Positions 3,382-46,614 of a DNA stretch of 64,000 bases are shown here, in pieces (positions within the stretch are counted from its first letter, which is position 1; every line of letters begins with the position of its first letter). The notes under the pieces were generated by a model, which saw only the letters and a program-made list of their open reading frames with translations, searched no databases and was not told the origin of the DNA. A program made the position numbers and the translations under genes. Source of the DNA: Candidatus Staskawiczbacteria bacterium (GTDB taxonomy: Bacteria > Patescibacteriota > Minisyncoccia > Minisyncoccales > Staskawiczbacteraceae); NCBI GenBank assembly GCA_041661545.1, contig JBAZUH010000001.1, positions 147,877-211,876 of the forward strand, written 5' to 3'.

Positions 3382-3645
3382 TTAGCTATTGACATAAATA
3401 TATAAAAGAGTAGCATATAAATATAAATAGATGAATATTAAAAACCTCACAATTTTATTGAACTTGTTGTTATTGGACTTGCGCCAGGAGGTTTTTGATA
3501 ATGTGTAAACAATAAAACAAAAAAATATCAAAAAATCCTCCTAACAGAGGATTTTTTCTTTATTATTCTCGTTAGGCTAAAGCTTTAAACAGTTTTAGCC
3601 TAGCGAGAATAGTCGCACTTTCAAAATCAAACTACACATATAGCC

Positions 3646-3906
3646 ATGAGAACAATTAAATTTTCGCATGCAGTAAGAGGCAATTTAGACGTTGCCTCAG
3701 CAGCAGATGCTATCAATGAAATAGCTGAAAAACTGAACATCACGATAGTTAGCGAAGGAGCATCTTACAATGAGGAGACAGGAGAAATCGACATAAAAGT
3801 GAAGATAGACACTTCTTCTGGAGAAGTTCATAAATTCGAAAGTACCCTGCGGGAGGCTATTGATAATTTAGCACAGGTGGATGAATCAGCGATACCTGCT
3901 GCGTAA
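3646..3906 (+). CDS. hypothetical acidic 86-aa protein (GC-rich cassette I0)
   Basis: ORF visibly GC-richer than its flanks; followed by a hairpin plus C+T7 terminator at 3936-3963; no family recognised; no obvious SD. Confidence 0.45.
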   Translation: MRTIKFSHAVRGNLDVASAADAINEIAEKLNITIVSEGASYNEETGEIDIKVKIDTSSGEVHKFESTLREAIDNLAQVDESAIPAA

Positions 3907-3935
3907 AAGTTTATATAAAATAGTGATACTATTTT

Positions 3936-3963
3936 GGCTTGATGAAAATCGGGCCCTTTTTTT
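3936..3963 (+). terminator. intrinsic terminator of cassette I0
   Basis: GGCUUGA-UGAAAA-UCGGGCC stem (two G.U pairs) followed by C + 7 T. Confidence 0.6.
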
Positions 3964-4057
3964 ATGCCTGTGCACAAGTCTGTTTTTATATAAAAATGCT
4001 TTTACTGACCTGTGGATAACTATATTAAAATAGCTCTATTTAAGACTATTTTTGACA

Positions 4058-4136
4058 GTGGGGCAGGGGTGTTGACTAGGTGCCATGAAGTGGACTATAA
4101 ATAAGGAGAAGTGGGGAGATGTGGATAAATGTGGGA
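4058..4136 (+). promoter_or_regulatory. putative MraZ operator (GTGG[G/A] direct repeats)
   Basis: GTGGG/GTGGA boxes start at 4058, 4090, 4111, 4121 and 4131. The last three are spaced exactly 10 nt apart, just downstream of the -10 and upstream of mraZ. Confidence 0.6.
4072..4101 (+). promoter_or_regulatory. sigma70-like promoter of mraZ operon
   Basis: TTGACT (4072-4077), 18-nt spacer, TATAAA (4096-4101). Confidence 0.55.
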
Positions 4137-4178
4137 AAACTGGTAAAATAAGAGTATAACTAAAATAAATATATTTTC

Positions 4179-4610
4179 ATGTTAATTGGTCAATACGAAC
4201 ATACAATTGATATAAAAAAGCGATTAGCCCTTCCATCTAAATTTAGAGGAGAGTTGGGCGAAAAGGTGATTGTTACAAAGGGAGTAGAGAACTGCTTGAT
4301 TGTTTATACAGAAAAAGAATTTTTAGTAATTTCTGAAAAATTAAGTAATTTAACTATTAGTCAACCAGAAGCTAGGGGATTTGCAAGAACATTTTTAGCT
4401 TCAGCTATGGAAATAAATTTAGATAAATTAGGAAGAATATTAGTTCCAGACTATTTAAAAAAATATGCAGGGTTAAATAAAAATGTTGTTATTTGCGGAT
4501 TGTCTAATAGGTTAGAAATATGGGATTTGGAAAACTGGAATGCTTGGACAAAAGAAACAGAAAAAGGAGTTAGTGATATGGTTTCTAAATTAGGAGGGTT
4601 AGGAATATAA
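4179..4610 (+). CDS. mraZ: transcriptional regulator MraZ
   Basis: 143 aa; duplicated SpoVT/AbrB-like halves (DIKKRLALPSKFR ... DKLGRILVPDYL); first gene of the dcw-type operon. Confidence 0.95.
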   Translation: MLIGQYEHTIDIKKRLALPSKFRGELGEKVIVTKGVENCLIVYTEKEFLVISEKLSNLTISQPEARGFARTFLASAMEINLDKLGRILVPDYLKKYAGLNKNVVICGLSNRLEIWDLENWNAWTKETEKGVSDMVSKLGGLGI

Positions 4611-4615
4611 AAAAT

Positions 4616-5503
4616 ATGATACATACAGCTGTTCTTAAAAAAGAAGTTTTAGAAGGTCTTTCTCCAAAACAAAATGAAAACTTTATTGATTGCACAGTAG
4701 GTGAGGGGGGCCATGCAGAAGATATTCTTAAAAAAAATGGACCAATAGGAAAAGTGTTAGGTATAGATTTAGACCCACAGCAAATTGTATCTAGCCATTG
4801 GTTAGAAGCAATTTATAAAGATAGAGTTGCATTGGTTAACGATTCTTATACGCACATTACAGAAATTGTTGAAAGAAAAGATTTTAAACCAGTTAATGGC
4901 ATTTTATTGGATTTGGGAATGTCTTCTGTGCAATTAGACAAGGCTCATAAAGGTTTTTCTTTCAAAGTAGATCAAGGGATAGATATGAGATACAACGACG
5001 AAACGGGATATCTTACAGCAGAAAAAATTGTAAATGAATGGCCTGAAGAAAAAATTGAAGAAATGTTAGAAGAATATGGAGAAGAAAAATTTGCCAGAAA
5101 AATTGCTAAAAGTATTGTAGAGCAAAGAAAGCTAGGAAGAATTAAAACAACATTTCAACTTATAGAAATTATAAAAGATTCTACGCCTAGCGCATATTGG
5201 GGAGGAAAAATTCATTATGCAACTAGAACATTTCAAGCATTAAGAATTGCAGTTAACGACGAACTGGAAAATATTAAAAAAGTATTGCCACAAGCAGTTT
5301 CAATTTTAGAGCCAGAAGGCAGGTTAGTGATAATATCTTTTCATTCATTAGAAGACAGAATAGTTAAACAGTTTTTAATAGAAGAATCAAAAAAGGGAAC
5401 AATAAAAATATTAAACAAAAAACCACTAACAGCTTCCAGAGACGAGCTTGGGAAAAACCCCCGCTCAAGATCTGCAAAGTTGAGAGTGGCTATAAAAATA
5501 TGA
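4616..5503 (+). CDS. rsmH: 16S rRNA (cytosine1402-N4)-methyltransferase RsmH
   Basis: 295 aa; DCTVGEGGH, LLDLGMSS, SFHSLEDR motifs; follows mraZ. Confidence 0.95.
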   Translation: MIHTAVLKKEVLEGLSPKQNENFIDCTVGEGGHAEDILKKNGPIGKVLGIDLDPQQIVSSHWLEAIYKDRVALVNDSYTHITEIVERKDFKPVNGILLDLGMSSVQLDKAHKGFSFKVDQGIDMRYNDETGYLTAEKIVNEWPEEKIEEMLEEYGEEKFARKIAKSIVEQRKLGRIKTTFQLIEIIKDSTPSAYWGGKIHYATRTFQALRIAVNDELENIKKVLPQAVSILEPEGRLVIISFHSLEDRIVKQFLIEESKKGTIKILNKKPLTASRDELGKNPRSRSAKLRVAIKI

Positions 5504-11131: not shown

Positions 11132-11437
11132 ATGATAGCAATAATAAAAACTGGCGGAAAGCAATATTTGGTTCAGCCAGGAGACAAAATAAAAGTAGAA
11201 AAGTTATTAAAAGAAGTAGGAGAAGAAGTTGTTTTCTCTGATGTTTTATTAGTGGAAAAATCTAAGAAAGTAGAAATTGGAACACCTTTTGTTACAGCTC
11301 AGGTTCATGCAAAGGTTTTAAAACATGGAAAGGGAGATAAAATAATAGTTTATAAATACAAACCAAAGAAAAGAGAAAGTAGAAAAATTGGTCACAGACA
11401 GCCATATACAGAAGTGGAAATTACAGGAATTAAATAA
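11132..11437 (+). CDS. rplU: 50S ribosomal protein L21
   Basis: MIAIIKTGGKQYLVQPGDKIKVEKL is a canonical L21 N-terminus. Start moved to the internal ATG at 11132 because the longer ORF covers a TTGACG..TAAGAT promoter. Confidence 0.9.
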   Translation: MIAIIKTGGKQYLVQPGDKIKVEKLLKEVGEEVVFSDVLLVEKSKKVEIGTPFVTAQVHAKVLKHGKGDKIIVYKYKPKKRESRKIGHRQPYTEVEITGIK

Positions 11438-11443
11438 AATTTT

Positions 11444-11467
11444 AAAAACCCCGCATTGCGGGGTTTT
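11444..11467 (+). terminator. intrinsic terminator after rplU
   Basis: AAAAA-CCCCGC-ATT-GCGGGG-TTTT. Confidence 0.8.
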
Positions 11468-11472
11468 ATATT

Positions 11473-12243
11473 ATGACAAAAGAAGTAAAATGGCTTCTAG
11501 ATGAGAAGTATAACGGCAAAAAAACAGAAAGTTTTTATAAAGATGTTAAAAGGCTCGAAGCTGGTGAGCCGGTTGATTATGTAATAGGATTTACTGAGTT
11601 TTTGGGTTGTAAAATTGATTTATCTAAAAAACCTTTAATACCACGACCAGAAACAGAATATTGGGTATGTGAAGAGATTAAGAGAATTAGTCGCGTTTTT
11701 GGCGAACGCCAAAAACGCGACTTTTTTGCCTTAGACATGTTTGCGGGGTCGGGGTGCATTGGAATTGCTATTTTGCGCCACGTGAAAAATGTGAAAGTTA
11801 TTTTTGCAGATAAAAGCCAAGATTGTGTTAAGCAAATAAAAATTAATCTTAAAATAAACCATGTCAAAAAGGGTTTTATTGTGCGACAATCAGATATATT
11901 TAGTAATATAAAAGAGAAGGCCGATTACATTTTCGCTAATCCGCCATATATTCCAACAACACGCAGAAGTAGGGTTGGAAAATCTGTTTTAAAATTTGAA
12001 CCGCACAAAGCTTTATTTGCCGGCAAAAATGGACTATTTTTTATAAATAAATTTTTAAAAGATGCCAAAAAATATTTAAATGCCGGTGGAATAATTTTTA
12101 TGGAATTTGATGGTTTGGCAGGCTCGTCACATGCCCCATCGCAGAAAAAAGAAATAGAAAAATTAATAAAAAAATATAAATATTCTAAATGGGAATTTAA
12201 AAAAGATCAATATAACCGTTGGCGCTGGGTCGAAATACAATAA
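11473..12243 (+). CDS. prmC: release-factor glutamine N5-methyltransferase PrmC/HemK
   Basis: 256 aa; SAM-binding DMFAGSGCIG and catalytic NPPY (FANPPYIP). Confidence 0.85.
   Translation: MTKEVKWLLDEKYNGKKTESFYKDVKRLEAGEPVDYVIGFTEFLGCKIDLSKKPLIPRPETEYWVCEEIKRISRVFGERQKRDFFALDMFAGSGCIGIAILRHVKNVKVIFADKSQDCVKQIKINLKINHVKKGFIVRQSDIFSNIKEKADYIFANPPYIPTTRRSRVGKSVLKFEPHKALFAGKNGLFFINKFLKDAKKYLNAGGIIFMEFDGLAGSSHAPSQKKEIEKLIKKYKYSKWEFKKDQYNRWRWVEIQ
11878..11887 (+). repeat. ATTGTGCGAC polar motif copy 1
   Basis: Exact 10-mer inside prmC (read as I-V-R). Confidence 0.9.
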
Positions 12244-12244
12244 T

Positions 12245-12273
12245 TTGACGGAAATTGTCTAATCTGTTAATGT
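12245..12273 (+). promoter_or_regulatory. sigma70-like promoter of cassette I1
   Basis: TTGACG (12245-12250), 17-nt spacer, TAATGT (12268-12273). Confidence 0.45.
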
Positions 12274-12347
12274 TTAGATAAGTTATCATCTCGCGACTGA
12301 GATGCAAACACAAGCAGTTCGTTGTCAACCAAAATAGAGGAAGTAAA

Positions 12348-13697
12348 ATGAAGACGCAAGACATGGAACACAACAGAAAAGGCGCTATAATCGCCGAAGG
12401 TAAGACCAAGAGAATTCACAAAGTTCTTGGTCGACCAGGCTTGGTTATTGTTGAGTCGAAAGACGATATTACTGCCGGCGACGGGGAAAAACATGACGTC
12501 ATCAAAAACAAAGCTGAGCTGTCCACCGCAACAACATGTAATGTGTTTTCGTTGCTCAGGCATTGCGGCTTGCCGGTTGCCTTTGAGGACCAACTAAACC
12601 CCAAGGAATTCTTAGCTCCGGCGCTGGATATGATTCAATTGGAAGTTGTGGGGCGTCGTGTTGCAACGGGCTCTTACCTCCAGCGCAACCCGCACGTTCC
12701 CAATGGTACAGTGTTTCCACGCCTCGTGACCGAGTTCTACTTGAAGACGCACGGCTGCGAGTTCAACGGACACAAGTTCCCGAAAAGTACGCCAGGGAAA
12801 TCCTACGACGATCCGTACATGAAAATCGTCGGCGAAGAAGTCTGGCTCTATAATGCGCACATCCCGTTGGCTACGCAGGAGCCATTCCTCAAGCTTCCGC
12901 TTATCGAGATTTTCCCGAAAAACAACGGGGAAGAAGTGATGGCACGCATGGCTGCGTTGAATACGCTTGCTTTCCTGATCATTGAGAAGGCCTGGAAAAT
13001 CCTCGGCTATGACATGTTGGATTGGAAAATCGAATTTGGCTGGTACAACGACACGCTTTGTATCGGAGACGTGATCGACGCTGATTCGTGGCGTGTGATG
13101 AAGGATGGGCAGAAATTGTCCAAGCAGGCTTACCGTGATAATGAAGGGCTTACTGTGATGGAAAAAGTCCTACGCAGGACGGCAACACTCACCGGTTGTT
13201 TTCGGATTCCCGAGCAGTCTTTGGTGGTATGGAGTGGTTCGCCAAACGATGATACGAACCCCTTCATGACGGCTTTCAAGCTATTCACCGACTCAGGAAT
13301 TCCCGGATTGAACATTCATTGCTTCGTCAGATCTGCTCACAAAGAAACGATTCAGTCGGCGTTTATGTTACAGGACATGGAATTTGGTTGTAAAGGCCTT
13401 GGTGATTCCACCCCATTGCCCGATCCGGTTATCGTCACTAACGTTGGAAGGAGTAATGGTTTGGGACCTATGTGTGCGGCGAATAGCATGGTGCCGGTTA
13501 TCAGTACAGTTCCCGACCCGGTGGATGTCAACTCATCGTTGCGCATGCCCAGCGATGTTCCGCTGATGGTGGTTACCGATCCTAAACTCGCCGTTCAGGC
13601 CGCGCTCAAGATTCTTGCCGGCAGAAATCCTTTATTATGGGCTCTTTTGCGCCTGAAGCAGGAAGAGCGCACGACTAATGCGATTCTGCTTCCGTAA
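12348..13697 (+). CDS. bifunctional SAICAR synthetase / class II AIR carboxylase (PurC-PurE fusion, PAICS-like)
   Basis: 449 aa and GC-rich. N-terminal half carries PurC motifs (EGKTK, SKDDITAGDG, VVGRRVATGSYLQRNP, DWKIEFG, VIDADSWR). C-terminal half carries PurE motifs (RSAHK, GRSNGLGP). The domain order and several blocks match what I recall of animal PAICS. Confidence 0.85.
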   Translation: MKTQDMEHNRKGAIIAEGKTKRIHKVLGRPGLVIVESKDDITAGDGEKHDVIKNKAELSTATTCNVFSLLRHCGLPVAFEDQLNPKEFLAPALDMIQLEVVGRRVATGSYLQRNPHVPNGTVFPRLVTEFYLKTHGCEFNGHKFPKSTPGKSYDDPYMKIVGEEVWLYNAHIPLATQEPFLKLPLIEIFPKNNGEEVMARMAALNTLAFLIIEKAWKILGYDMLDWKIEFGWYNDTLCIGDVIDADSWRVMKDGQKLSKQAYRDNEGLTVMEKVLRRTATLTGCFRIPEQSLVVWSGSPNDDTNPFMTAFKLFTDSGIPGLNIHCFVRSAHKETIQSAFMLQDMEFGCKGLGDSTPLPDPVIVTNVGRSNGLGPMCAANSMVPVISTVPDPVDVNSSLRMPSDVPLMVVTDPKLAVQAALKILAGRNPLLWALLRLKQEERTTNAILLP

Positions 13698-13724
13698 TCG
13701 GTGTAACTCCATTTTTTTATTTTT

Positions 13725-13760
13725 GCCCGCTACGCTTTGCGTTTGCCGGGCTCTTTTTTT
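13725..13760 (+). terminator. intrinsic terminator of cassette I1
   Basis: GCCCG...CGGGC stem with inner ACGC/GCGT, then TC + 7 T. Confidence 0.65.
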
Positions 13761-13778
13761 ATGGTAATATATATTAAT

Positions 13779-14465: not shown

Positions 14466-14500
14466 TAGTAATTTAGTGTATAATATAATAAATAATATAA

Positions 14501-16015: not shown

Positions 16016-16019
16016 TAAT

Positions 16020-28585: not shown

Positions 28586-28586
28586 T

Positions 28587-35612: not shown

Positions 35613-35673
35613 TAAATCGGTATTACGCCTCCATGGCATGGAGGAGGGCCGGGTTCGATTCCCGGTGGGTCCA
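35603..35673 (+). tRNA. tRNA-Ala (anticodon GGC)
   Basis: Acceptor GGGCCCA/TGGGTCC with the G3:U70 Ala identity pair; D arm GTAA-ATCGGTA-TTAC; anticodon arm CCTCC-ATGGCAT-GGAGG; T arm CCGGG-TTCGATT-CCCGG; discriminator A; CCA not encoded. Confidence 0.85.
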
Positions 35674-35731
35674 CAAACAGGGTGTTCCTGCGATACAGAA
35701 CATTGAAAATCAAGCGAAAGGAAATCACGCC

Positions 35732-35986: not shown

Positions 35987-36246
35987 TGATGGAACCACTA
36001 AAAATTGGAGGACTTATTGAGCAAAAGCATAGGCTAAAAAGCAAGGTCCCCATACTTTTGTTGACTTTTTTCGTAATATACATTCCTTTTCTGGGCAAGA
36101 TTGTCTATGACAGCAGGTCTTTGCCAAATTTTTGGGAACTGGTTCTGCTGGGGGGATTAGCTGTTGTTCCAGTGAGTGCTGGGTTGGTATGCTTTACCGT
36201 TAATATCATGCTAAACCGAAGCAAGCACTTCAGGCCCTTTCATTAA
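35986..36246 (+). CDS. 86-aa two-helix membrane protein (GC-rich cassette I5, gene b)
   Basis: ATG 35986 preceded by the strong SD AAAGGAGG; translationally coupled to gene a; two hydrophobic helices. Confidence 0.5.
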   Translation: MMEPLKIGGLIEQKHRLKSKVPILLLTFFVIYIPFLGKIVYDSRSLPNFWELVLLGGLAVVPVSAGLVCFTVNIMLNRSKHFRPFH

Positions 36247-36251
36247 TTTTT

Positions 36252-36282
36252 GCCCTTGGACATCTCTTGGGCTTCTTTTTTT
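36252..36282 (+). terminator. intrinsic terminator of cassette I5
   Basis: GCCC...GGGC weak stem, then TTC + 7 T; flanks TGCCCTT..GG...GGGCTTCTTTTTTTAT match the I3 terminator. Confidence 0.45.
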
Positions 36283-36353
36283 ATTCATTGACACGGTTTT
36301 CTTTTATGTAATATAATAACTTAACAGTATAAATAATATTTAATTATAAAATT

Positions 36354-36848
36354 ATGAATAGTAGAAATGTATTCAGTATATTAATGATTGTCACAATATT
36401 TTTAGTTGCAGGAGCTGTTTATGCTGTGGCGCCGAATCAATTAAATTCAGTAAAATATACAGAAGCTCAAAAAAAATGTATAAAGATTGCTCAAGAAAAA
36501 ATGGCTAATGCTTTAAAGCCAGCTAGAGAGGCCATGCAAAATGCCACTAAAGATGTGTTGAAAATAAAACAAAATGCAATATCAGCAGCCCAAAAACTTA
36601 CAGACCAAGAAGCTAAAAAAGTTGCTATAAAAGCTGCTAATGAGGCATATAATAACAATCCTGTTGTTAAGAAGGCAAAAATTCCATATTCGGGGGCGGT
36701 TAAAGTAGCAAACGAACAATTTAAAAAAGATCAAAAAAATTGCTTATCTGAATCTCCATTTTCTCCAAACGGATTTTTAAAAAATATTAGAGAAAGATTT
36801 TCAAATTTTGGGCAAGGAATAGAAAAGTTTTTTACTGGTAGAAAATAA
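36354..36848 (+). CDS. secreted alpha-helical hypothetical protein
   Basis: 164 aa; signal/TM start; K/A/Q-rich. Promoter TTGACA (36288), 18-nt spacer, TATAAT (36312). Terminator at 36857-36884. Confidence 0.5.
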   Translation: MNSRNVFSILMIVTIFLVAGAVYAVAPNQLNSVKYTEAQKKCIKIAQEKMANALKPAREAMQNATKDVLKIKQNAISAAQKLTDQEAKKVAIKAANEAYNNNPVVKKAKIPYSGAVKVANEQFKKDQKNCLSESPFSPNGFLKNIRERFSNFGQGIEKFFTGRK

Positions 36849-36941
36849 GAAATAAGAAAAAACCGGCACATAGGCCGGTTTTTTAAATAATATAATTATA
36901 TTATTGATTTCTTTAAAATTTTTTAGTAATATTATATTTGT

Positions 36942-38156
36942 ATGAACATAAATTATAAAAAAATAATATATTCAGTTGTTTTTGTAATAATATTGTTAGC
37001 AGCTGTTGCTTTAGGTATATGGATAGGTGTAAATAAAGTTGCTTACCACGTGCCTCAGCCAGGAACAATTGATTTTTCACTTTTTTGGGATGCATATAGC
37101 CAACTCAAAGAAAATTTTATAAGCCCAGAAAAAATAGATGATCAAAAAGTAATTTATGGGGCTATAAAGGGAATGGCAGAGTCGTTAGGAGATCCTTATA
37201 CAGATTTTTTTAATCCCAGCCAAGCTAAATTGTTTCAACAGGACTTATCTGGTTCTTTTGGTGGAATAGGCGTAGAAATTGGTATTAAAGAAGATATGTT
37301 AACTATTATAGCTCCTCTAAAAAATACTCCAGGAGAAAGGGCGGGTTTGAAGTCAGGTGATGTAATTGTAAAAATAAATGGGCAAGATAGCAGTAAAATG
37401 ACTGGTGATGAAGCAGTAAGCTTGATTCGCGGACCAAAAGGTAAATCAGTTATTCTGAGTATTATGCGAGAAGGCTGGGACAACACAAAAGATATAACAA
37501 TTGTAAGAGACACAATAAAGGTTCCGTTTATTGAATGGTCTTTAATAAATTCTTTAGGAGATGTTGATGACAAAAATGGGGATATAGCATATATTCAAAT
37601 ATACCAATTTAACGAAAGTCTTAGTGAAGAGTTTAAAGTAATTGCTTTAAAAATTTTACAAAGTCCAGCAAAAAAGATAATATTAGACTTGAGAAACAAC
37701 CCCGGAGGTTATTTAGAAGTTTCGCAAGATATTGCTGGATGGTTTTTACAAAAAGACCAAGTAGTAACAATAGAAGATTTTGGAAAAGCTAAATCACAAG
37801 AAATATATAAAACTTCTGGTAATTCCGGTTTAATAAGTTATCCAATTGTTGTATTAATAAATGAGGGCTCTGCTTCAGCATCAGAAATATTAGCAGGAGC
37901 TTTAAGAGATAATAGAAATATCAAATTAATTGGTATGAAATCTTTTGGAAAGGGTTCAGTTCAGCAAGTGATAAGTTTGAATGGTGGTGCGTTTTTAAAA
38001 ATAACAATTGCTCATTGGCTAACCCCAAAAGGCAAATCTATTTCTGAAGTAGGGCTAACTCCAGATATAGAAATTGATATAACAGAACAAGACGTAGAAA
38101 ATAAAAAAGACTCGCAATTAGACAAAGCTATTGAAATTGTAAACAATTTAAAGTAG
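36942..38156 (+). CDS. carboxy-terminal processing protease (S41, CtpA-like)
   Basis: 404 aa; N-terminal TM, PDZ (GLKSGDVIVKING), catalytic region GSASASEILAGAL ... GKGSVQ. Confidence 0.9.
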   Translation: MNINYKKIIYSVVFVIILLAAVALGIWIGVNKVAYHVPQPGTIDFSLFWDAYSQLKENFISPEKIDDQKVIYGAIKGMAESLGDPYTDFFNPSQAKLFQQDLSGSFGGIGVEIGIKEDMLTIIAPLKNTPGERAGLKSGDVIVKINGQDSSKMTGDEAVSLIRGPKGKSVILSIMREGWDNTKDITIVRDTIKVPFIEWSLINSLGDVDDKNGDIAYIQIYQFNESLSEEFKVIALKILQSPAKKIILDLRNNPGGYLEVSQDIAGWFLQKDQVVTIEDFGKAKSQEIYKTSGNSGLISYPIVVLINEGSASASEILAGALRDNRNIKLIGMKSFGKGSVQQVISLNGGAFLKITIAHWLTPKGKSISEVGLTPDIEIDITEQDVENKKDSQLDKAIEIVNNLK

Positions 38157-41587: not shown

Positions 41588-42076
41588 TTAATTTATTTTA
41601 CAAAATATCTTAGCCATTTCAAACCATTTTGGGGTGCGGGGATTGTTTTTATATTTTGCTGAAGATTTGTGGATTTCTATAAGAGAGCATATTTCATTTT
41701 TTTTCCAAGTAGATAAATTTTTGCCTTTGTTATTTTTAAGTATTTCTACTGCTTTTAACCAAAGTTCAAAATCTTTTTTCTTTTTATCTGACAATGGATT
41801 TTTTTTAAAAAATGATATTACTATTTTAGATAAGTCGTCTATTTTTTGAACAGAAAATCTTGCTTGGTCTTTTGAGGTTGAAATTTCTCCGCAGTTAAAT
41901 TCTTTTTTTATTTTTTCTAATATTTTAATTTTACTTAAAGGAGATGTAACAACAAATTGAGCTTTCCATCTATAATATGTTGGCGAGCCTGTTCTATCGT
42001 GTCTAGCATCTTTTCTAAATTGCAAATCAAAACATCCATCATTGTTTACTATTGTAGAAATATTAAATGTTTTCAT
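41588..42076 (-). CDS. free-standing LAGLIDADG-family homing endonuclease-like protein
   Basis: 162 aa; degenerate LAGLIDADG core (IVNNDGCFDLQF); family-typical ...LEKIKKEFNCGEI...F.V.KIDDLSKIVISFFKKNPL..KKKKDFELW. Confidence 0.65.
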   Translation of the reverse strand: MKTFNISTIVNNDGCFDLQFRKDARHDRTGSPTYYRWKAQFVVTSPLSKIKILEKIKKEFNCGEISTSKDQARFSVQKIDDLSKIVISFFKKNPLSDKKKKDFELWLKAVEILKNNKGKNLSTWKKNEICSLIEIHKSSAKYKNNPRTPKWFEMAKIFCKIN

Positions 42077-42099: not shown

Positions 42100-42109
42100 A
42101 TTGTGCGAC
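42100..42109 (+). repeat. ATTGTGCGAC polar motif copy 4
   Basis: Exact 10-mer, intergenic, 20 nt upstream of the metK promoter -35. Confidence 0.9.
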
Positions 42110-42129
42110 AAGGGTGTGGATATCTATGC

Positions 42130-42157
42130 TTGCATTGAATTTTTATTTTGATATAAT
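42130..42157 (+). promoter_or_regulatory. sigma70-like promoter of the SAM riboswitch-metK unit
   Basis: TTGCAT (42130-42135), 16-nt spacer, TATAAT (42152-42157). Confidence 0.6.
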
Positions 42158-42176
42158 TTAGACAATACAATTTAAA

Positions 42177-42308
42177 TTATCAAGAGAATAGGAAAGGGTA
42201 CTGACCCGTTAAATCCTATCAGCAACCTGCTTAGTTGAGTAAGGTGCTAATTTCAGCCCGAAAGGGAAAGATAAATTTTTAATTAGCTTTCCCATAAGGA
42301 AAGTTTTT
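42177..42308 (+). promoter_or_regulatory. SAM-I (S-box) riboswitch with terminator
   Basis: TTATCAAGAG...GGAAAGGGTACTGACCC...AATCC..TCAGCAACC...GGTGCTAATTTCAGC...AGATAA matches the S-box core. The terminator CTTTCC-CATAA-GGAAAG + T5 (42287-42308) can compete with GGGAAAG of the aptamer 3' side. Confidence 0.85.
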
Positions 42309-42314
42309 ACGTTT

Positions 42315-43364
42315 ATGATTATAAATCAAAAAACATATGCAGTAGAAAGTGTGACATCTGGTCATCCAGATAAAGTTTGCGATCAAATTTCAGACGCAAT
42401 TTTAGATGCTTGTTTAGCACAAGATGCAAATTCAAGAGTTGCAGTAGAATCATTTGGTGGGCATGGAATGTTAGTTGTTGGCGGAGAAGTTACAACAACA
42501 GCAAAAGTTGATTATCAGGCAATTGCAGAAAAAGTTTATAAAGATATTGGTTATACTCAAGAATTAAAATTTATAGTAAATGTTGTTGAACAATCACCAG
42601 ATATTGCTATGGGTGTAAATACTGGCGGAGCAGGGGATCAGGGCATTATGTATGGATATGCTACAAGCGAAACCCCAGAATATATGCCATGGGCAGTGGT
42701 TAAGGTTCATGCTTTAGCAAAAGGCTTGCAAAATTTAAGAGAATCAGGAGAAATAAAATGGCTAAAACCAGATGGAAAATCTCAAATAACAATGCAAGAT
42801 GGAAAAATTAAAAATGTTTTAATTAGCACTCAGCATGATGTGGAAGTTTTGCAAGAAGAAATAAAAAACACTTTAACAGAAAAATTAATAAAACCAATTT
42901 TAGGAGATATCGCTGGCATAGATATATTTGTTAATCCAACGGGAAATTTTGTGCAAGGTGGTTTTGAGGCTGACACTGGTTTAACTGGCCGAAAAATAAT
43001 GGTAGATACTTATTGCGGTTTAATTTCTCACGGTGGTGGAGCTTTTTCAGGCAAAGACCCAAGCAAAGTAGACAGGTCAGCTGCTTATATGGCTAGATTT
43101 GCAGCAAAAAATATTGTTGCTAATGGATACGCAAAAGAATGTTTGGTATCGGTGGCTTATGCAATTGGCATGGCCGAACCATTAATGGTTTCTGCAGTTG
43201 ATGAAAATGGAAAAAGTTTAGATGAATTAATTGCTAAGTTTGATTTTAAACCACAATCTATTATTAAAACTTTAGAATTAAAACAGCCTATTTATCAAAA
43301 AACAGCAGCCTACGGTCATTTTGGAAAAGCCGACCTACCCTGGGAAAAAATAATCAAAATCTAA
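42315..43364 (+). CDS. metK: S-adenosylmethionine synthase
   Basis: 349 aa; ESVTSGHPDKVCDQISDAILD, GAGDQG, GGGAFSGKDPSKVDRS. Confidence 0.95.
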   Translation: MIINQKTYAVESVTSGHPDKVCDQISDAILDACLAQDANSRVAVESFGGHGMLVVGGEVTTTAKVDYQAIAEKVYKDIGYTQELKFIVNVVEQSPDIAMGVNTGGAGDQGIMYGYATSETPEYMPWAVVKVHALAKGLQNLRESGEIKWLKPDGKSQITMQDGKIKNVLISTQHDVEVLQEEIKNTLTEKLIKPILGDIAGIDIFVNPTGNFVQGGFEADTGLTGRKIMVDTYCGLISHGGGAFSGKDPSKVDRSAAYMARFAAKNIVANGYAKECLVSVAYAIGMAEPLMVSAVDENGKSLDELIAKFDFKPQSIIKTLELKQPIYQKTAAYGHFGKADLPWEKIIKI

Positions 43365-43374
43365 TATCAAAAAT

Positions 43375-43413
43375 AAAAAACAGCCATGTGCACCGGTGCA
43401 CATGGCTGTTTTT
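43375..43413 (+). terminator. intrinsic terminator after metK
   Basis: AAAAAA-CAGCCATGTGCACC-GGTGCACATGGCTG-TTTTT; a perfect long stem. Confidence 0.85.
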
Positions 43414-43423
43414 ATTGTGCGAC
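43414..43423 (+). repeat. ATTGTGCGAC polar motif copy 5
   Basis: Exact 10-mer immediately after the metK terminator T-run. Confidence 0.9.
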
Positions 43424-43600
43424 AAAAATACCTTTAATTCCGTCGTTTTTTGTTTTAATATAAAGTTATAATATTAAAAGACTTATATCTTAGAGACATT
43501 TTGGATGGCTCAAAACTACTAATATGATTATTTTAAAAAGTTTGTTTTTTCTGTTTGCATTTTTATATAGAAAGAGCAATATTAAACAATAAATATAAAT

Positions 43601-44245
43601 ATGAAAATGCCACTATCATCTTTAGAAAATCTTATCCGGCCACCATTAATGAGAGACATTTTTGGCTATTTCGTGCCAGGTTTTATTTTTTGTATTGTGT
43701 ATTTTATTTACGCCAATGATTATACGTCTTTAATATTATCAACTTCTGGGCTTGCATTAATTTGGGTTAGCGTGGCGATTACTGTAGTTTCTTATTTTGC
43801 TGGTAAAATCGGCATGATGTTAATTGATTGTCTATACTCAATGGTTAGTTTTGTAGTATATACCGTAATAAAAATTCACAAATGCCATATAAGTAAAACT
43901 TCGGTTTTTCAATACATTAAAAATTCTATGCCCGTTGGATCGGTTTCCACACCAGTTGAAACTAAAGATGAAATTGTATATTCTGAATTGCTATCATTAT
44001 GTCAGGAGGTGCCAGTAGTTGGCGATTATCTTGAGAGGAGTGCCATACGTCAAATTTTTTGTAGAAGCGGTCTTGGCTTGTCGATAATACTAGCTGCGAT
44101 ATTAACTCCTAGACTGCCCATAGTGTTAATCGTAGTCGCCGTAAGTTTTCTGTTTCTAATCGATCACATCGCAACTACAAAAAGTTCGAGAGACATGGAG
44201 ATTGACATCGCGATTTTATCTGAAAAAAGAAGGCAGGGCAAATAA
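43601..44245 (+). CDS. polytopic membrane protein, unknown function
   Basis: 214-aa AT-rich ORF with 4-5 hydrophobic helices; bracketed by motif copies 5 and 6. Confidence 0.5.
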   Translation: MKMPLSSLENLIRPPLMRDIFGYFVPGFIFCIVYFIYANDYTSLILSTSGLALIWVSVAITVVSYFAGKIGMMLIDCLYSMVSFVVYTVIKIHKCHISKTSVFQYIKNSMPVGSVSTPVETKDEIVYSELLSLCQEVPVVGDYLERSAIRQIFCRSGLGLSIILAAILTPRLPIVLIVVAVSFLFLIDHIATTKSSRDMEIDIAILSEKRRQGK

Positions 44246-44265
44246 TGGTTTAAAGCGTACATATT

Positions 44266-44275
44266 ATTGTGCGAT
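44266..44275 (+). repeat. ATTGTGCGAT polar motif copy 6 (1-nt variant)
   Basis: 9/10 match; 20 nt after the preceding stop and about 14 nt upstream of a TTGACA -35. Confidence 0.7.
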
Positions 44276-44345
44276 ATTTCAGGCATTAATTTGACAAAGT
44301 ATGTAGATTATATAATATACAAGATGTAGGCAACTTGTATTTATT

Positions 44346-45059
44346 ATGAATAAAAAAAATAATAAACAACGTAAAGATGGTGCAGAGCTAGCTATTTTGC
44401 ATAAAATTATAGAAACAATAAGTTATGACTTAAACCTAGAAGAGGTTTTGTCAAAAATTATAAAAACAGTTGGCAAAGTTACAAAAGCTGATTCTTGTTT
44501 TTTATATTTAATTGATGGCAACAACCTTGTTATGCGCGCTTCGCAAAATCCTCACCCAGGGATTATTGGAAATATTAAATTAAAATTAGGAGAGGGAATT
44601 ACAGGTTGGGTGGCTAAACACAAAAAAACAGTTATTATACCAAAAAATGCATATGAAGATTCTCGATTTAAATTGTTTAATAATTTGCCCGAAGATAAAT
44701 ATGAAACATTTTTGTCTGTGCCTGTAATATATAAAAAACAAACTTTGGGTGTAATCAATGTTCAACATAAAAATTCTCAAAAATATTTTGATAGTGAAAT
44801 AAAACTTTTTGAAACTATTGCCAGAGCAATTGGTGGGGCTATTGAAAATGCAAGATTATTTTCAGAGAGCGAGTGTTTAAGAGAAACTTTAGAAACTAGA
44901 AAATCAGTAGAAAAAGCAAAAGGAATTTTAATGAAAGAAATGTCAATTTCTGAAGATGATGCTTATAAACTTTTAAATAAAAAAAGCATGGACAAAAGAA
45001 TTTCAATGAAAGAAGTTGCAGATGCAATTTTAATTTCTGATGAATTAAGAAAACAATAA
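44346..45059 (+). CDS. GAF-ANTAR RNA-binding antitermination regulator
   Basis: 237 aa. N-terminal GAF-like domain (ADSCFLYL...GEGITGWVA...SVPVIYK..LGVINVQH). C-terminal ANTAR (LETRKSVEKAKGILMKEMSISEDDAYKLLNKKSMDKRISMKEVADAIL). Confidence 0.85.
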   Translation: MNKKNNKQRKDGAELAILHKIIETISYDLNLEEVLSKIIKTVGKVTKADSCFLYLIDGNNLVMRASQNPHPGIIGNIKLKLGEGITGWVAKHKKTVIIPKNAYEDSRFKLFNNLPEDKYETFLSVPVIYKKQTLGVINVQHKNSQKYFDSEIKLFETIARAIGGAIENARLFSESECLRETLETRKSVEKAKGILMKEMSISEDDAYKLLNKKSMDKRISMKEVADAILISDELRKQ

Positions 45060-45060
45060 C

Positions 45061-45088
45061 TTGACACGATATTTATAAAGAATATAAT
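45061..45088 (+). promoter_or_regulatory. sigma70-like promoter of cassette I6
   Basis: TTGACA (45061-45066) starts 2 nt after the ANTAR gene stop; 16-nt spacer; TATAAT (45083-45088). Confidence 0.65.
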
Positions 45089-45100
45089 TAAATTGAAGCT

Positions 45101-45167
45101 GGCACAATGTTGTGTCAACTAAAGCGACAAAGAGGTCTCCTACGCAGGTAGGGGATTTTTGTTGTTT
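45101..45167 (+). promoter_or_regulatory. ANTAR-type leader: two hexaloop hairpins overlapping an intrinsic terminator
   Basis: HP1 is GGCAC-AATGTT-GTGTC (45101-45116). A 7-nt linker follows. HP2 is GCGAC-AAAGAG-GUCUC (45124-45139). Both loops have A at position 1 and G at position 4. The terminator CTCCTAC-GCAG-GTAGGGG + ATTTTTGTTGTTT (45137-45167) shares 45137-45139 with the HP2 3' arm. Confidence 0.65.
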
Positions 45168-45225
45168 AGGCTCATTGAAAACCAATCTTACAGGAACAAC
45201 AACCAGCCAACCAAAGGAGAACCAA

Positions 45226-45453
45226 ATGAACAACTGTCCACTTGCAAAAAATTGCGGAACCAAAAGGTTTTTGGATGATTTCTATGGCGACAGCCACCCC
45301 GATAAGCCTTGCTCGGGCATTTATGCCAGTTGCCACCTCTATATAGCAGACAGAGATGCCCGAGAAGTAGCCGAAGATGCCAAGGACTCGTCCGATCACC
45401 ATTCTGGCGAGCACGCTTCACTTCTGGACAAATTGCTGAGGAGAGCTGGTTAA
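45226..45453 (+). CDS. 75-aa Cys/His-rich hypothetical protein (cassette I6, gene a)
   Basis: ATG 45226 preceded by AAAGGAGAA; Cys at 4, 10, 29 and 36; His/Asp-rich acidic tail; terminator at 45483-45513. Confidence 0.5.
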   Translation: MNNCPLAKNCGTKRFLDDFYGDSHPDKPCSGIYASCHLYIADRDAREVAEDAKDSSDHHSGEHASLLDKLLRRAG

Positions 45454-45482
45454 TAACCATGGTTGATTGATCTCGTCTCTAT

Positions 45483-45513
45483 GCCGCGTTTCCCAAAGCG
45501 TGGCTCTTTTTTT
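45483..45513 (+). terminator. intrinsic terminator after I6 gene a
   Basis: GCCGCG-TTTCCCAAAG-CGTGGC (one G.U), then TC + 7 T. Confidence 0.6.
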
Positions 45514-45593
45514 GACTTTATTGATTTTGTGTTGTAAGTTATACATACTACAACATTGTGTTGTGGCGTTCATTTACAAGTAGAACAACAACT

Positions 45594-46226
45594 ATGAAAA
45601 CACGATATTTACTGATTGGCTTTGTATGCGCATTGGCGCTTGGCTGTCAAAAGCCTGAAAATACTTCGGCAAAAACGGAAAATGTATGGGGTAAATTTGC
45701 AAAGAGCGTTCTTGCAGCCGGGAAGGCCAAAGACGCCGACACATTCGTCAACAAGCTGAGCATGTCCAGCGTTGCCGACCTCGACGCTCTGCTTGAGGAG
45801 CTGAAAAAAGCTAACCCCGAAGTTGAATTTGAGGAGAACGCGGAAAGACCCACGGACGCCGAGATCCGCAAAGAAGCAGAGGCAAACGTGCGCCTCTTCA
45901 TGAACTCGTACGCGGACGTGTTTGACGGCGGCGGTGAGCTTTTTAGTGTTATAACCGCTCAATTCCCCGAGACAAGGGGCACAAACATTTACTCCTTGAT
46001 CATTTGGGCAAAACAAAGCGACGGAAAATTTCGGGGCATCAAGGTCGACAGCGTCTGGAAGAAAGACGACGGCACCATTAAGGTTATGACGTGGACGCAA
46101 CTTAGTGGCTACGAAGCCAGCAAGGGCGCCATCTCAAAAAAGGCCATTCTGGAACGTGACACTGCCGAGGCTTGTAATTACCCAGAGTGGATACAATATA
46201 AAACTGTTTTCACTGACCCAAACTAG
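45594..46226 (+). CDS. putative lipoprotein (cassette I6, gene b)
   Basis: From ATG 45594: MKTRYLLIGFVCALALGC is a lipoprotein-type signal with a lipobox-like LALGC. 210-aa GC-rich ORF; no family recognised. Confidence 0.55.
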   Translation: MKTRYLLIGFVCALALGCQKPENTSAKTENVWGKFAKSVLAAGKAKDADTFVNKLSMSSVADLDALLEELKKANPEVEFEENAERPTDAEIRKEAEANVRLFMNSYADVFDGGGELFSVITAQFPETRGTNIYSLIIWAKQSDGKFRGIKVDSVWKKDDGTIKVMTWTQLSGYEASKGAISKKAILERDTAEACNYPEWIQYKTVFTDPN

Positions 46227-46270
46227 GCGAGCAACTGCTCATTAATAGATGATAATAGGAAAACAAAAAA

Positions 46271-46534
46271 ATGTCACAGTACGTTTTTCCAGTTAGTGAG
46301 GGTGTGGAATGTTTAGTGGGGTGGGATGAGTCCATGCAAACATTCTTCGGCCAAATTTACAGGGTTGATAAAGACGGCGAGCGAGTGGATGCTGAGGAAG
46401 ATGGCACCATTTTATGGGTAGGTCGTCGCCACAATGAAATTAAGTCGGTTTATGTGCTGGCAACGCAACTTAGGCCAAGAGCCGAAATACCATCCAAAAT
46501 ATACGGGGCATTGTTCAAAACTGAGGTCGACTGA
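46271..46534 (+). CDS. 87-aa hypothetical protein (cassette I6, gene c)
   Basis: GC-rich ORF (..LVGWDESMQTFFGQIY..WVGRRHNEI..); resembles small proteins I associate with phage/plasmid hypotheticals, but this is unverified. Confidence 0.5.
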   Translation: MSQYVFPVSEGVECLVGWDESMQTFFGQIYRVDKDGERVDAEEDGTILWVGRRHNEIKSVYVLATQLRPRAEIPSKIYGALFKTEVD

Positions 46535-46555
46535 GATTCCAATTCAGTTGACAAG

Positions 46556-46582
46556 ACCGCGAGTCATCGTGGTTCTTTTTTT
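46556..46582 (+). terminator. intrinsic terminator ending cassette I6
   Basis: ACCGCGA-GTCA-TCGTGGT (one G.U), then TC + 7 T. Confidence 0.65.
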
Positions 46583-46614
46583 ATTTAAAAATTTTTCAGC
46601 GCTAGTATTATTCT

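Follow-up and report, generated by a model that had tools for sequence, protein, structure and literature searches.

Probable independent acquisition of GC-rich gene blocks in gaps between core genes of a Candidatus Staskawiczbacteria chromosome

In E. coli and other bacteria, horizontally transferred genes are known to collect at chromosomal hotspots between conserved core genes and in small genomic islands ('islets'). Tailed phages carry morons, autonomous promoter-gene-terminator units that lie between two phage genes and often deviate in composition. For Patescibacteria, up to 13% of the genome is reported to consist of genomic islands and single-gene transfers (PMC12455944). The window analyzed here, a stretch of 64,000 nt, is chromosomal DNA from a 738-kb contig of Candidatus Staskawiczbacteria (Patescibacteria). 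This organism is an ultra-small, uncultured and probably symbiotic bacterium.

Five GC-rich blocks of the window (I1, I2, I3, I5 and I6) conform to what is commonly seen when genes are transferred horizontally into hotspots. The accessory genes cluster in a small number of gaps that separate syntenic core genes, a given gap is empty in some Staskawiczbacteria relatives and filled with different gene families in others, the blocks are of atypical composition, and most gaps are devoid of mobility genes, as expected if exchange uses flanking homology. The differences from described hotspots and islets are: i) the unusually small scale of one to three genes per gap, ii) the high density of five blocks in 46 kb (~10% of that length), iii) the very large contrast in GC3 (0.19 versus 0.44-0.68), and iv) the ultra-small, probably symbiotic host, whose cargo includes late purine-pathway genes that are usually absent from such bacteria. 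Like phage morons, the cassettes are one-gene units equipped with a terminator and usually a promoter of their own, lie between genes that are neighbours in relatives, and differ from these genes in composition; in contrast to morons, their backbone is a cellular housekeeping chromosome, neither phage nor prophage, with no phage genes nearby, and they have no relatives in the phage collections searched. The cassettes also resemble those of integrons, including integrase-less clusters of attC sites, in being compact, mostly single-gene and foreign in composition, and a tyrosine recombinase gene (xerC-like) adjoins I6. Unlike integron cassettes they are scattered without forming an array, carry promoters, and share no attC-like imperfect palindromes or other common boundary sites in the window, and the recombinase belongs to the conserved core genes and is located at the skew switch. 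We consider it likely that the five blocks are independent acquisitions from higher-GC sources in hotspot gaps, with block I4 being native and I0 probably belonging to the backbone (Table 1).

Table 1. Blocks I0-I6 and associated features, with positions in the window
Feature	Position	Strand	Properties or evidence
I0 block	3600-3963		GC 0.385, z 1.9
I0 86-aa acidic ORF and terminator	3646-3963	+	GC 0.385, z 1.9, GC3 0.32; terminator by scan and fold
I1 block	12300-13760		GC 0.496, z 4.9
I1 promoter-like site TTGACG, 17-nt spacer, TAATGT	12245-12273	+	read from sequence
I1 5' leader: stem-loop CATCTC..GAGATG, then GTTCGTTG motif	12287-12324	+	
I1 gene, PurC-PurE fusion (SAICAR synthetase and AIR carboxylase), 449 aa	12348-13697	+	GC3 0.59
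I1 terminator, hairpin and seven T	13725-13760	+	-13.6 kcal/mol, z -2.6
I2 block	22950-23756		GC 0.525, z 5.7
I2 promoter-like site TTGACA, 17-nt spacer, TAAAAT	22902-22930	+	consensus scan, 11/12 matches
I2 gene, 206-aa signal-anchored protein, function unassigned	23004-23624	+	GC3 0.68
I2 terminator	23727-23756	+	scan; fold of 23705-23756 -18.1 kcal/mol, z -4.1
I3 block	25130-25505		GC 0.476, z 4.3
I3 promoter-like site TTGACT, 16-nt spacer, TATAAA	25142-25169	+	read from sequence
I3 gene, 80-aa predicted membrane protein	25206-25448	+	GC3 0.60
I3 terminator	25469-25505	+	-11.3 kcal/mol, z -3.3
I4 block	29229-29728		GC 0.454, z 3.8
I4 first half, T-box leader RNA	29229-29427	+	Rfam RF00230
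I4 second half, 68-aa CxxC...CxxC zinc-ribbon ORF, between T-box and tyrS	29505-29711	+	
I4 terminator	29699-29728	+	-9.4 kcal/mol, z -2.6
I5 block	35603-36282		GC 0.447, z 3.6
tRNA-Ala(GGC), left edge of I5	35603-35674	+	ARAGORN, Rfam
I5 genes: 84-aa Cys-rich protein (35732-35986) and overlapping 86-aa membrane protein (35986-36246)	35732-36246	+	GC3 0.44-0.46
I5 terminator	36252-36282	+	-8.1 kcal/mol, z -2.5
AT-rich accessory segment: SAM riboswitch, metK, unknown gene, GAF-ANTAR gene	42100-45059	+	
I6 block	45090-46582		GC 0.463, z 4.0
I6 promoter-like site TTGACA, 16-nt spacer, TATAAT	45061-45088	+	consensus scan, 12/12 matches
I6 leader hairpin, 13 pairs, and T5, attenuator-like	45131-45165	+	scan
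I6a gene, 75-aa Cys/His-rich protein	45226-45453	+	
I6a terminator	45483-45513	+	scan; -12.8 kcal/mol, z -4.1
I6b, 210-aa predicted lipoprotein (45594-46226), and I6c, 87 aa (46271-46534)	45594-46534	+	GC3 0.57 (I6b)
I6 terminal terminator	46555-46582	+	scan and fold
xerC-like tyrosine recombinase	46675-47646	-	Pfam PF00589, 2.4e-39

A preliminary description of this DNA had listed seven blocks richer in GC than their surroundings. Windowed GC and GC3 bear out this discontinuity for six of them, I1 to I6, with a GC content of 45-53% compared to 31% for the backbone (mean 0.314, sd 0.037, maximum 0.43 in 300-nt windows); the richest 300-nt windows within blocks reach 0.48-0.55. Backbone genes have GC3 of 0.16-0.33, mostly ~0.19, and cassette ORFs 0.44-0.68, with the exception of I0, which lies inside the backbone range. 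The GC enrichment of I0 is marginal, and this block is probably ordinary backbone.

Misjoining of short pieces from a GC-richer organism during assembly or binning could produce such a picture, given that the source is a metagenome assembly and that cassette proteins form singleton clusters at 90% identity. However, five contigs from a second assembler (Logan, SRR18595301; window positions 11362-16172, 21932-24579, 24756-29334, 35647-37093 and 43384-47361), which may have been built from the reads already used for the original assembly, match at 100%, reading through I1, I2, I3 and I6 across their two junctions and through the right junction in the case of I5. In addition, several independent metagenomes hold the I1 unit in the same gap, and backbone sequence lies on either side of every block within one contig. 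We therefore regard an artefact as extremely improbable. It is also very unlikely that the blocks are GC-rich as structured RNAs and not as protein genes. This explanation applies to the T-box RNA in the first half of I4 and to the tRNA-Ala at the GC-rich left edge of I5, but the cassette ORFs show a coding signature (GC3 > GC2, GC1 0.5-0.57), I1 has strong Pfam matches (PF01259, 5.9e-34; PF00731, 5.3e-10), I2 has protein homologues and a confident predicted fold, and there are no further Rfam matches in the blocks. The long antisense shadow ORFs described earlier were found within the blocks.

Backbone gene order is the same in ~100 related loci, and the synteny comparison upholds the proposal that the blocks occupy gaps between genes adjacent elsewhere, as many relatives have empty sites. 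Of 23 relatives, 10 have a prmC|nuclease gap of 0-90 bp, and in five others it measures 1.2-1.9 kb with GC of 0.47-0.56. For virD4|efp, 25 of the 46 relatives have less than 120 bp between the two genes, and the gap in the rest reaches 7.9 kb; the gap between the HhH gene and the next core gene is ~40-65 bp in 8 of 36. The flanking genes had all been taken as conserved, but the HAD, paaX-like and ANTAR genes are missing from the same place in relatives. Across genomes, the prmC|nuclease gap carries PurC-PurE, PurC, PurB or PurH, including two unrelated PurC(-E) families with a mutual identity of only 33-50%, which indicates repeated replacement. The gap upstream of the protease gene in relatives contains an FGGY sugar kinase or fucose isomerase (after the tRNA in locus L147), and an ABC transporter is found beside xerC. 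Overall, GC-rich islands comprise 4.5-5.7% of 2.1 Mb of related loci. Because many relatives have nothing in these gaps and others carry different GC-rich genes there, the gaps are recurrent hotspots for single horizontally acquired genes. The hotspot gaps of the window would be prmC|nuclease, virD4-like|efp, HhH|next core gene, tRNA-Ala|protease gene and LAGLIDADG gene|xerC, where acquired genes would accumulate and turn over.

The history of I1 can be followed through its orthologues (67-80% identity). The whole promoter-leader-gene-terminator unit is common to at least six species; I1 is not a recent insertion confined to this genome. In every context checked (the set with 77-80% identity and one orthologue with 68%), the gene is on a Staskawiczbacteria contig and is either followed by the nuclease gene or preceded by prmC. 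The promoter-like site, which begins two bases past the prmC stop codon, has aligned counterparts of the TTGACA / TAAT type ahead of the orthologous PurC-PurE genes of five other genomes; in a six-genome alignment of the leader the stem changes are compensatory and the motif is conserved; and the terminator aligns with those of the orthologous units, among which the T-run length differs. At four-fold degenerate codon positions, identity in comparisons with the window is 0.43-0.59 for PurC-PurE versus 0.28-0.44 for flanking genes, an excess of only about two standard errors per comparison. GC3 of PurC-PurE is near-constant (0.57-0.63) in six genomes with backbone GC3 of 0.19-0.41 and has no positive trend with the latter. 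A two-state relaxation fit using the gene's own divergence gives an ancestral GC3 of 0.82 (rmsd 0.039), and using backbone divergence an impossible 1.22; a pure decay model matches the near-constant GC3 only approximately, and a polarity test for ongoing GC loss was confounded by composition, as seen in the backbone control. A fusion homologue with 44% identity on a 2.24-Mb contig has GC3 of 0.83, with GC of 63.5% in the surrounding 9.3 kb. The synonymous divergence of I1 fits a donor with GC3 of ~0.8, arrival after the species split and partial decay. Under this scenario, the unit would have spread among several Staskawiczbacteria species after their divergence and would now be about half-way decayed toward the AT-rich backbone.

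These data also bear on the possibility that the blocks are long-term residents, with high GC actively kept by codon or mRNA selection or by GC-biased gene conversion at recombination hotspots. The constant GC3 of PurC-PurE irrespective of the backbone, its synonymous sites being more conserved than those of its neighbours, and the many unrelated island genes of relatives near GC3 0.55-0.63 speak for maintenance. We nevertheless find it unlikely, because neutral decay from 0.82 fits, the prmC|nuclease gap has undergone the repeated replacement described above, and core genes beside the hotspots are not GC-enriched, which counts against hotspot-wide gene conversion. Moreover, the gene for ribosomal protein L21, presumably highly expressed, has backbone-like GC3 (0.19 in the window, 0.26-0.30 in relatives), making translational selection for GC-ending codons unlikely.

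The remaining acquired blocks, I2, I3, I5 and I6, have no homologue in ~160 related loci and their proteins form singleton clusters at 90% identity (among them those of I3, I6b and I6c); they would be private to this genome. Searches of related loci and of the clusters identified no donor for these orphans, and I6b has no relatives in IMG/VR or phage records. The I2 protein falls into a small family with 15 cluster representatives out of 1.84 billion, made up of secreted proteins of ~170-200 aa with a PQCHWDG motif. Its closest relative is 41% identical; its AlphaFold2 model (mean pLDDT 82.6) is beta-rich and has no fold match in PDB. I5 begins right at the 3' end of tRNA-Ala. The I6 leader hairpin has no match in Rfam. 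I6 shares the xerC-side gap with the AT-rich accessory segment, for which no homologue was found in relatives; there the LAGLIDADG gene is mostly directly beside xerC.

As described earlier, every cassette has its own terminator: all eight 3' ends carry a hairpin (-8 to -18 kcal/mol, z -2.5 to -4.1) followed by C, exactly seven T, and A or G. The TTGACA-type promoters attributed to most cassettes fared less well. Sigma-70-like sites precede I6, I2 (Table 1) and I0 (10/12 matches), and TTGAC-type sites were found by eye upstream of I1 and I3, but such matches are no commoner than in shuffled sequence and the consensus scan found none at I5. The uniform terminators, the GCCC...GGGCTTCTTTTTTT-type ends behind GC-rich stretches in many relatives, and the single orientation of the window cassettes would suit one higher-GC donor, as initially suggested, or a dedicated system in which a common vector or recombinase places promoter-gene-terminator modules in gaps. 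However, GC3 differs among the cassettes (p = 2e-4), and so do their ages, I1 being present in at least six species and the others having no homologues in related loci. The cassettes have no sequence in common, and no shared boundary or inverted repeats, target-site duplications, terminal repeats or att-like sites were found at their boundaries. Likewise, the T-run length varies in orthologous PurC-PurE terminators, islands in relatives lie on both strands, and I4 is native. The suggested phage or plasmid pool is not borne out, as searches returned no phage or plasmid matches and no IMG/VR relatives of the cassettes. A single donor or system is thus decidedly unlikely.

The orientation itself requires no special mechanism. 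All cassette ORFs are indeed on the + strand, the one with positive GC skew, but among 50 listed backbone ORFs that precede 46.6 kb, 47 have this orientation as well. The cumulative GC skew has its maximum at the xerC-like gene, where the gene strand flips, pointing to a probable replication terminus nearby; the + strand pattern is explained by leading-strand bias (co-orientation with replication) up to this point.

I1, I2, I3, I5 and I6 are best read as acquisitions from sources of higher GC. As first proposed, these blocks are foreign in composition, mostly monocistronic, and each ends in a terminator of its own. They would represent separate events of differing ages, each bringing a short transcription unit with an intrinsic terminator and, in most cases, an AT-rich sigma-70-type promoter upstream. 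Foreign DNA would most likely have been taken up and then integrated by illegitimate or homology-facilitated recombination, and later exchange between relatives would run via the conserved flanking genes.

Block I4 had been described as a T-box and a 68-aa zinc-ribbon protein. The RF00230 match is full-length, including GGGUGGUACCGCG, and scores 56.3 bits (E = 1.7e-11), below the gathering score of 93. A T-box is present at the same place in two relatives (L008 and L003), and the zinc-ribbon ORF is kept at the same position in three (49% identity in L006, 43% in L008 and 35% in L013). With this leader and the conserved small ORF, I4 is native and not a foreign cassette. Like known T-box leaders of aminoacyl-tRNA synthetase genes, it lies upstream of such a gene, tyrS, and has the conserved T-box sequence and a terminator/antiterminator hairpin; it differs from them in its score under the threshold, a very short Stem I, and the presence of an ORF with its own terminator before tyrS.

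The GC-rich blocks of the window (I0 to I6), apart from I4 and the marginal I0, are best regarded as horizontally acquired single-gene islets that occupy conserved chromosomal hotspots of this Patescibacteria genome. Their neighbours are housekeeping genes (clpB-like, mraZ, prmC-like, efp, tyrS, CTP synthase, S41 protease and a xerC-like recombinase). Comparison with ~160 related loci, which were fetched in two scans around the virD4-like gene and around the CTP synthase gene and are denoted L003, L011 and so on, reveals that the backbone order is kept in dozens of Staskawiczbacteria genomes, both in a first stretch (prmC, nuclease, ..., virD4-like, efp, HhH, ..., tyrS) and in a second one (..., protease, CTP synthase, ..., LAGLIDADG gene, xerC). 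The length of the cassette-bearing gaps is highly variable among relatives, and the search for empty sites proposed in the preliminary description found the prmC/nuclease, virD4/efp, HhH/next and LAGLIDADG/xerC gaps closed in many of them. The prmC/nuclease gap is empty (0-90 bp) in 10 of 23 relatives and holds 1.2-1.9 kb of DNA with a GC content of 0.47-0.56 in five others; the virD4-like/efp gap is shorter than 120 bp in 25 of 46 relatives and reaches 7.9 kb when filled; the gap between HhH and the next core gene spans ~40-65 bp in 8 of 36 relatives and up to 7.1 kb when filled. The LAGLIDADG gene directly abuts xerC in most relatives and lies 4.6 kb from it in the window, where the intervening segment, an AT-rich part followed by the GC-rich I6, has no homologue in relatives. 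The AT-rich part is missing from this gap in every relative examined; thus, the GC-rich I6 shares its gap with accessory DNA that resembles the backbone in composition. The free-standing LAGLIDADG endonuclease-like gene itself (41588-42076, minus strand) adjoins xerC across relatives with 49-78% identity, a conserved placement that is unexpected for a homing endonuclease.

Coordinates and base composition of the blocks and associated features (window coordinates unless another locus is named; z is relative to backbone windows)
Feature	Coordinates	GC	z	Terminator T-run	Remarks
I0	3600-3963	0.385	1.9	3956	GC within backbone range
I1	12300-13760	0.496	4.9	13753	PurC-PurE
I2	22950-23756	0.525	5.7	23749	
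I3	25130-25505	0.476	4.3	25498	
I4	29229-29728	0.454	3.8	29721	T-box + zinc-ribbon region
I5	35603-36282	0.447	3.6	36275	
I6	45090-46582	0.463	4.0	45506, 46575	
T-box + zinc-ribbon region, L008	19215-19744				
Zinc-ribbon region, L006	17203-17391				
Zinc-ribbon region, L013	16454-16597				
AT-rich accessory segment	42100-45059				SAM riboswitch (42174-42277) with metK, unknown 214-aa gene, GAF-ANTAR regulator
Logan contig match	11362-16172				100% identity
Logan contig match	21932-24579				100% identity
Logan contig match	24756-29334				100% identity
Logan contig match	35647-37093				100% identity
Logan contig match	43384-47361				100% identity

The GC content of the window is 32.8%, and the backbone without the seven blocks has a mean of 0.314 in 300-nt windows (sd 0.037, maximum 0.43), as compared with 0.48-0.55 in the top 300-nt windows of the blocks. 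All seven blocks had been described as visibly richer in GC than their surroundings; windowed statistics bear out such a compositional break for six (z 3.6-5.7) but not for I0. The difference extends to third codon positions, with GC3 values of 0.44-0.68 in the cassette ORFs and 0.16-0.33, mostly ~0.19, in backbone genes. In the cassette ORFs GC3 exceeds GC2, the pattern expected for genuine coding sequence, and the long shadow ORFs reported on the antisense strands were seen in the blocks. We defined GC-rich islands in relatives as stretches whose GC exceeds the locus median by more than 0.10; such islands account for 4.5-5.7% of the related loci. Ribosomal and other known RNAs were rejected as the cause of these islands, since the search detected nothing beyond tRNAs and one LOOT RNA, the latter (RF03000, 87 bits) at positions 2915-3034 of the Staskawiczbacteria-like contig L103. 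A separate locus of 36% GC, L058, carries three tandem paralogous ORFs of ~60 aa at 935-2260 that are 82-95% identical, with GC3 of 0.61-0.64.

The blocks are not an assembly artefact. Five Logan contigs of run SRR18595301, located by exact-protein look-ups, are identical to the window over their matched ranges. They run through the left and right junctions of I1, I2, I3 and I6, and for I5 through the right one, which argues against chimeric junctions at these sites. The Logan contigs possibly derive from the same reads as the original assembly, and therefore represent an independent assembly rather than independent data.

Different GC-rich cargo within one and the same gap indicates that the gaps are probable hotspots of repeated gain and replacement. 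The prmC/nuclease gap contains a PurC-PurE fusion of the window's type in L011 and a more distant version in L006, a second PurC or PurC-PurE family with members only 33-50% identical to each other in L005, L007, L008, L009, L014, L018 and L043, PurB in L005, PurH in L019, and unknown proteins elsewhere. The gap that precedes the protease gene and starts at tRNA-Ala in the window contains an FGGY sugar kinase gene directly after the tRNA in L147, a fucose isomerase in L133, and also unknown genes; the xerC gap of L103 holds an ABC transporter. The cargo genes of these three gaps in relatives are all GC-rich against their own backbones. Another variable gap, between the L21 gene and prmC, carries an aspartate/ornithine carbamoyltransferase gene with GC3 of 0.45-0.49 in L083 (1866-2849), L087 (316-1263) and L090 (1012-2037) that is absent from this position in the window, a GC-rich metabolic gene possibly involved in nucleotide synthesis.

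Orthologues of the PurC-PurE fusion in I1 share 67-80% identity with it. In all contexts checked (L011 and L083-L090) they also occupy the prmC/nuclease gap, as shown by the nuclease gene on their downstream side, by prmC on their upstream side or, on contigs long enough, by both; PurB often lies between prmC and PurC-PurE. The I1 unit is homologous end to end in six genomes, comprising a TTGAC-type promoter, a leader stem-loop, a GTTCGTTG motif, the gene and a terminator. The leader stem-loop (12287-12324) displays compensatory changes relative to the aligned L011, L083, L086, L087 and L089, with the stem variants CATCTC/GAGATG, GCTTTC/GAAAGC and GCCTT/AAGGC, and is followed on its 3' side by the conserved GTTCGTTG(A) motif; we consider this leader a candidate cis-regulatory element for purine genes. 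The GC3 of PurC-PurE is 0.57-0.63 in the six genomes, where backbone GC3 is 0.19-0.41, and this near-constancy across species is the remaining oddity. At four-fold degenerate positions, pairs of PurC-PurE genes are 0.43-0.59 identical (0.27 expected at saturation), as compared with 0.28-0.44 for flanking genes relative to the window (0.28-0.35 expected), an excess of ~2 standard errors per comparison that is consistent across comparisons. A two-state relaxation model based on the divergence of PurC-PurE itself yields an ancestral GC3 of 0.82 (rmsd 0.039), whereas with backbone divergence it requires an impossible value of 1.22. The nearest relatives of I1 outside the clade are 43-48% identical; a fusion homologue with 44% identity resides in a 2.24-Mb contig, where its GC3 is 0.83 and the 9.3 kb fetched around it have 63.5% GC. 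Matches to PurC-PurE in phage records are limited to distant PurC proteins (27-29% identity). From the homologous unit in the same gap, the excess four-fold identity, the relaxation fits and the high-GC fusion homologue, we infer that a high-GC bacterium was the source of the I1 unit, which spread among Staskawiczbacteria species once these had diverged and has partly decayed. Majority-rule polarity of synonymous changes in PurC-PurE (19 from G/C to A/T vs 3 in reverse) was dropped as evidence, because the backbone control showed the mirror bias (34 from A/T to G/C vs 7 the other way) that is expected from majority-rule polarisation.

The preliminary description attributed all cassettes to one higher-GC source, such as a phage or plasmid pool. 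The GC3 values of the cassettes are heterogeneous (p = 2e-4), and the proteins of I2, I3, I5 and I6 are without homologues in the ~160 related loci; those present in a large protein collection form singleton clusters at 90% identity. The I2 gene (23004-23624) encodes a member of a rare secreted-protein family (~170-200 aa) that is marked by a PQCHWDG motif, in which the HW.G core is invariant. The family has 15 cluster representatives among 1.84 billion, together with one 3347-aa protein that contains 22 matched stretches. The proposed similarity and structure searches were productive for I2 in that its best relative is 41% identical and its AlphaFold2 model is confident (mean pLDDT 82.6, beta-rich), but the model has no match among PDB folds at E <= 0.001. 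The I3 protein and I5b, the second ORF of I5, look like small membrane proteins, and I6b, the second ORF of I6, looks like a lipoprotein. No relatives of I2 or I6b were found in IMG/VR, none of I6b in phage records, none of I2 in plasmid records, and no close relatives of I2 in JGI metagenomes; no donor emerged for I2, I3, I5 or I6. Transposon-like and att-like boundaries were rejected, as the search for direct or inverted repeats bounding the blocks gave only AT-rich low-complexity matches, and a second dif-like site was dismissed as a boundary of I6 after no duplicate was found flanking it. The lack of homologues in relatives, the differing GC3, the absence of boundary repeats and of a dif-like duplicate, and the lack of phage, plasmid and metagenome relatives of I2 or I6b argue for separate events and against one donor or one mechanism.

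Block I4, previously counted among the foreign cassettes, would instead be native, with its GC content derived from a structured RNA and a conserved small gene. Positions 29229-29427 match the full-length T-box model (RF00230; 56.3 bits, E = 1.7e-11, under the Rfam gathering score of 93), including GGGUGGUACCGCG and the terminator/antiterminator hairpin, with a very short Stem I. The corresponding position carries a homologous T-box hit in L008 (55 bits) and in L003 (39 bits), and the 68-aa CxxC...CxxC zinc-ribbon ORF that follows is kept in L006, L008 and L013. This ORF, with its own terminator, sits between the T-box and tyrS, and tyrS has its own promoter-like site as well as a long-range hairpin (29778-29842). 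The T-box appears to control the small zinc-ribbon protein, which would be an unusual arrangement.

The location of all cassette genes on the plus strand is a true observation but not a special property, as it follows from the general leading-strand bias: 47 of the 50 listed backbone ORFs upstream of the skew switch are also on the plus strand. Island genes of relatives occur on either strand. The cumulative GC skew climbs to ~46.6-47 kb (46500-47700) and then drops, and the gene strand switches from plus to minus where the skew peaks, adjoining the xerC-like recombinase gene. Because these two features coincide next to xerC, the window probably spans the replication terminus at 46500-47700; no convincing dif site was recognised near xerC with the dif sequences of E. 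coli and B. subtilis as references.

The claim that every cassette has its own terminator holds for all eight cassette 3' ends, where a hairpin (folding energy -8 to -18 kcal/mol, z -2.5 to -4.1) precedes a run of exactly seven T, always with C before the run and A or G after it. The GC-rich stretches of relatives end in similar GCCC...GGGCTTCTTTTTTT sequences, in which T7 is the commonest run and T6 and T8 are also present, and most backbone terminators consist of a perfect palindrome with A and T runs (T5-T6) on its sides. The TTGACA-type promoters ascribed to most cassettes are recovered as strong consensus matches at I6 (12/12), I2 (11/12) and I0 (10/12) and plausible ones at I1 and I3, but such matches are no commoner than in shuffles, an equally perfect site precedes a backbone gene at 36288, and I5, which begins at the 3' end of tRNA-Ala, has none. 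Between the perfect-consensus site of I6 and the start codon of its first ORF (I6a), a 13-pair hairpin followed by T5 (45131-45165) looks like an attenuator or a novel riboswitch; it has no match in Rfam.

Among known classes of elements, the blocks correspond to genomic islets in hotspots of horizontal gene transfer: their flanks are adjacent or nearly so in relatives, unrelated families share one gap across genomes, and the composition of six blocks departs from that of the host. Integrase-mediated genomic islands are defined by an integrase or mobility gene, tRNA adjacency and direct repeats. Here, as was noted before, only I5, which touches a tRNA, and I6, near the recombinase gene, have such neighbours, and flanking direct repeats are absent from every block. 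Like phage morons, the cassettes are autonomous units of deviant composition between genes that are adjacent in relatives, with promoters as consensus matches only and none at I5; unlike morons, they sit in a cellular chromosome among housekeeping genes and have no phage matches. Integron cassettes carry attC at the cassette end and form an array beside an integrase, whereas the present ones are dispersed, and no imperfect palindromes shared among them were found beyond ordinary terminators. Terminal inverted repeats and target-site duplications, the marks of transposons, IS elements and MITEs, were not found by the repeat search, and Pfam detected no transposase in or beside the blocks. Published work on Patescibacteria describes horizontal transfer of genomic islands and single genes, including some nucleotide-metabolism genes, amounting to as much as 13% of genome length (PMC12455944); therefore, the islets are a clear further example of a known phenomenon, and the locus reveals no new kind of genetic element. 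We regard it as rather improbable that Staskawiczbacteria (and perhaps further Patescibacteria) possess a systematic means of capturing single foreign genes in fixed intergenic slots, each as a monocistronic unit with promoter and terminator, and keep the GC3 of these genes at ~0.6 against an AT-biased backbone. The sole hints of it are the near-constant GC3 of PurC-PurE in six species and the uniform hairpin and seven-T ends; if true, it would constitute a cellular analogue of phage morons in which composition is maintained rather than decaying.

Patescibacteria have tiny genomes and usually lack nucleotide synthesis. The locus offers a view of metabolic patching in one of their members at single-gene resolution, in which PurC, PurE, PurB and PurH of the late purine pathway, all of foreign composition, would repeatedly enter a single conserved gap and pass from species to species as complete transcription units. 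Empty and filled sites within a conserved gene order provide a natural system for dating transfers by compositional decay, for establishing donor identity (possibly hosts), and for identifying accessory surface proteins with a possible role in host contact.

Upstream of mraZ, GTGGGGA, GTGGATA and GTGGGAA repeats with ~10-nt spacing, read by eye at 4040-4150, look like MraZ operator boxes. The prmC-like coding sequence contains a perfect palindrome with a 15-bp stem at 11689-11722, AGTCGCGTTTTTGGCG AACG CGCCAAAAACGCGACT.
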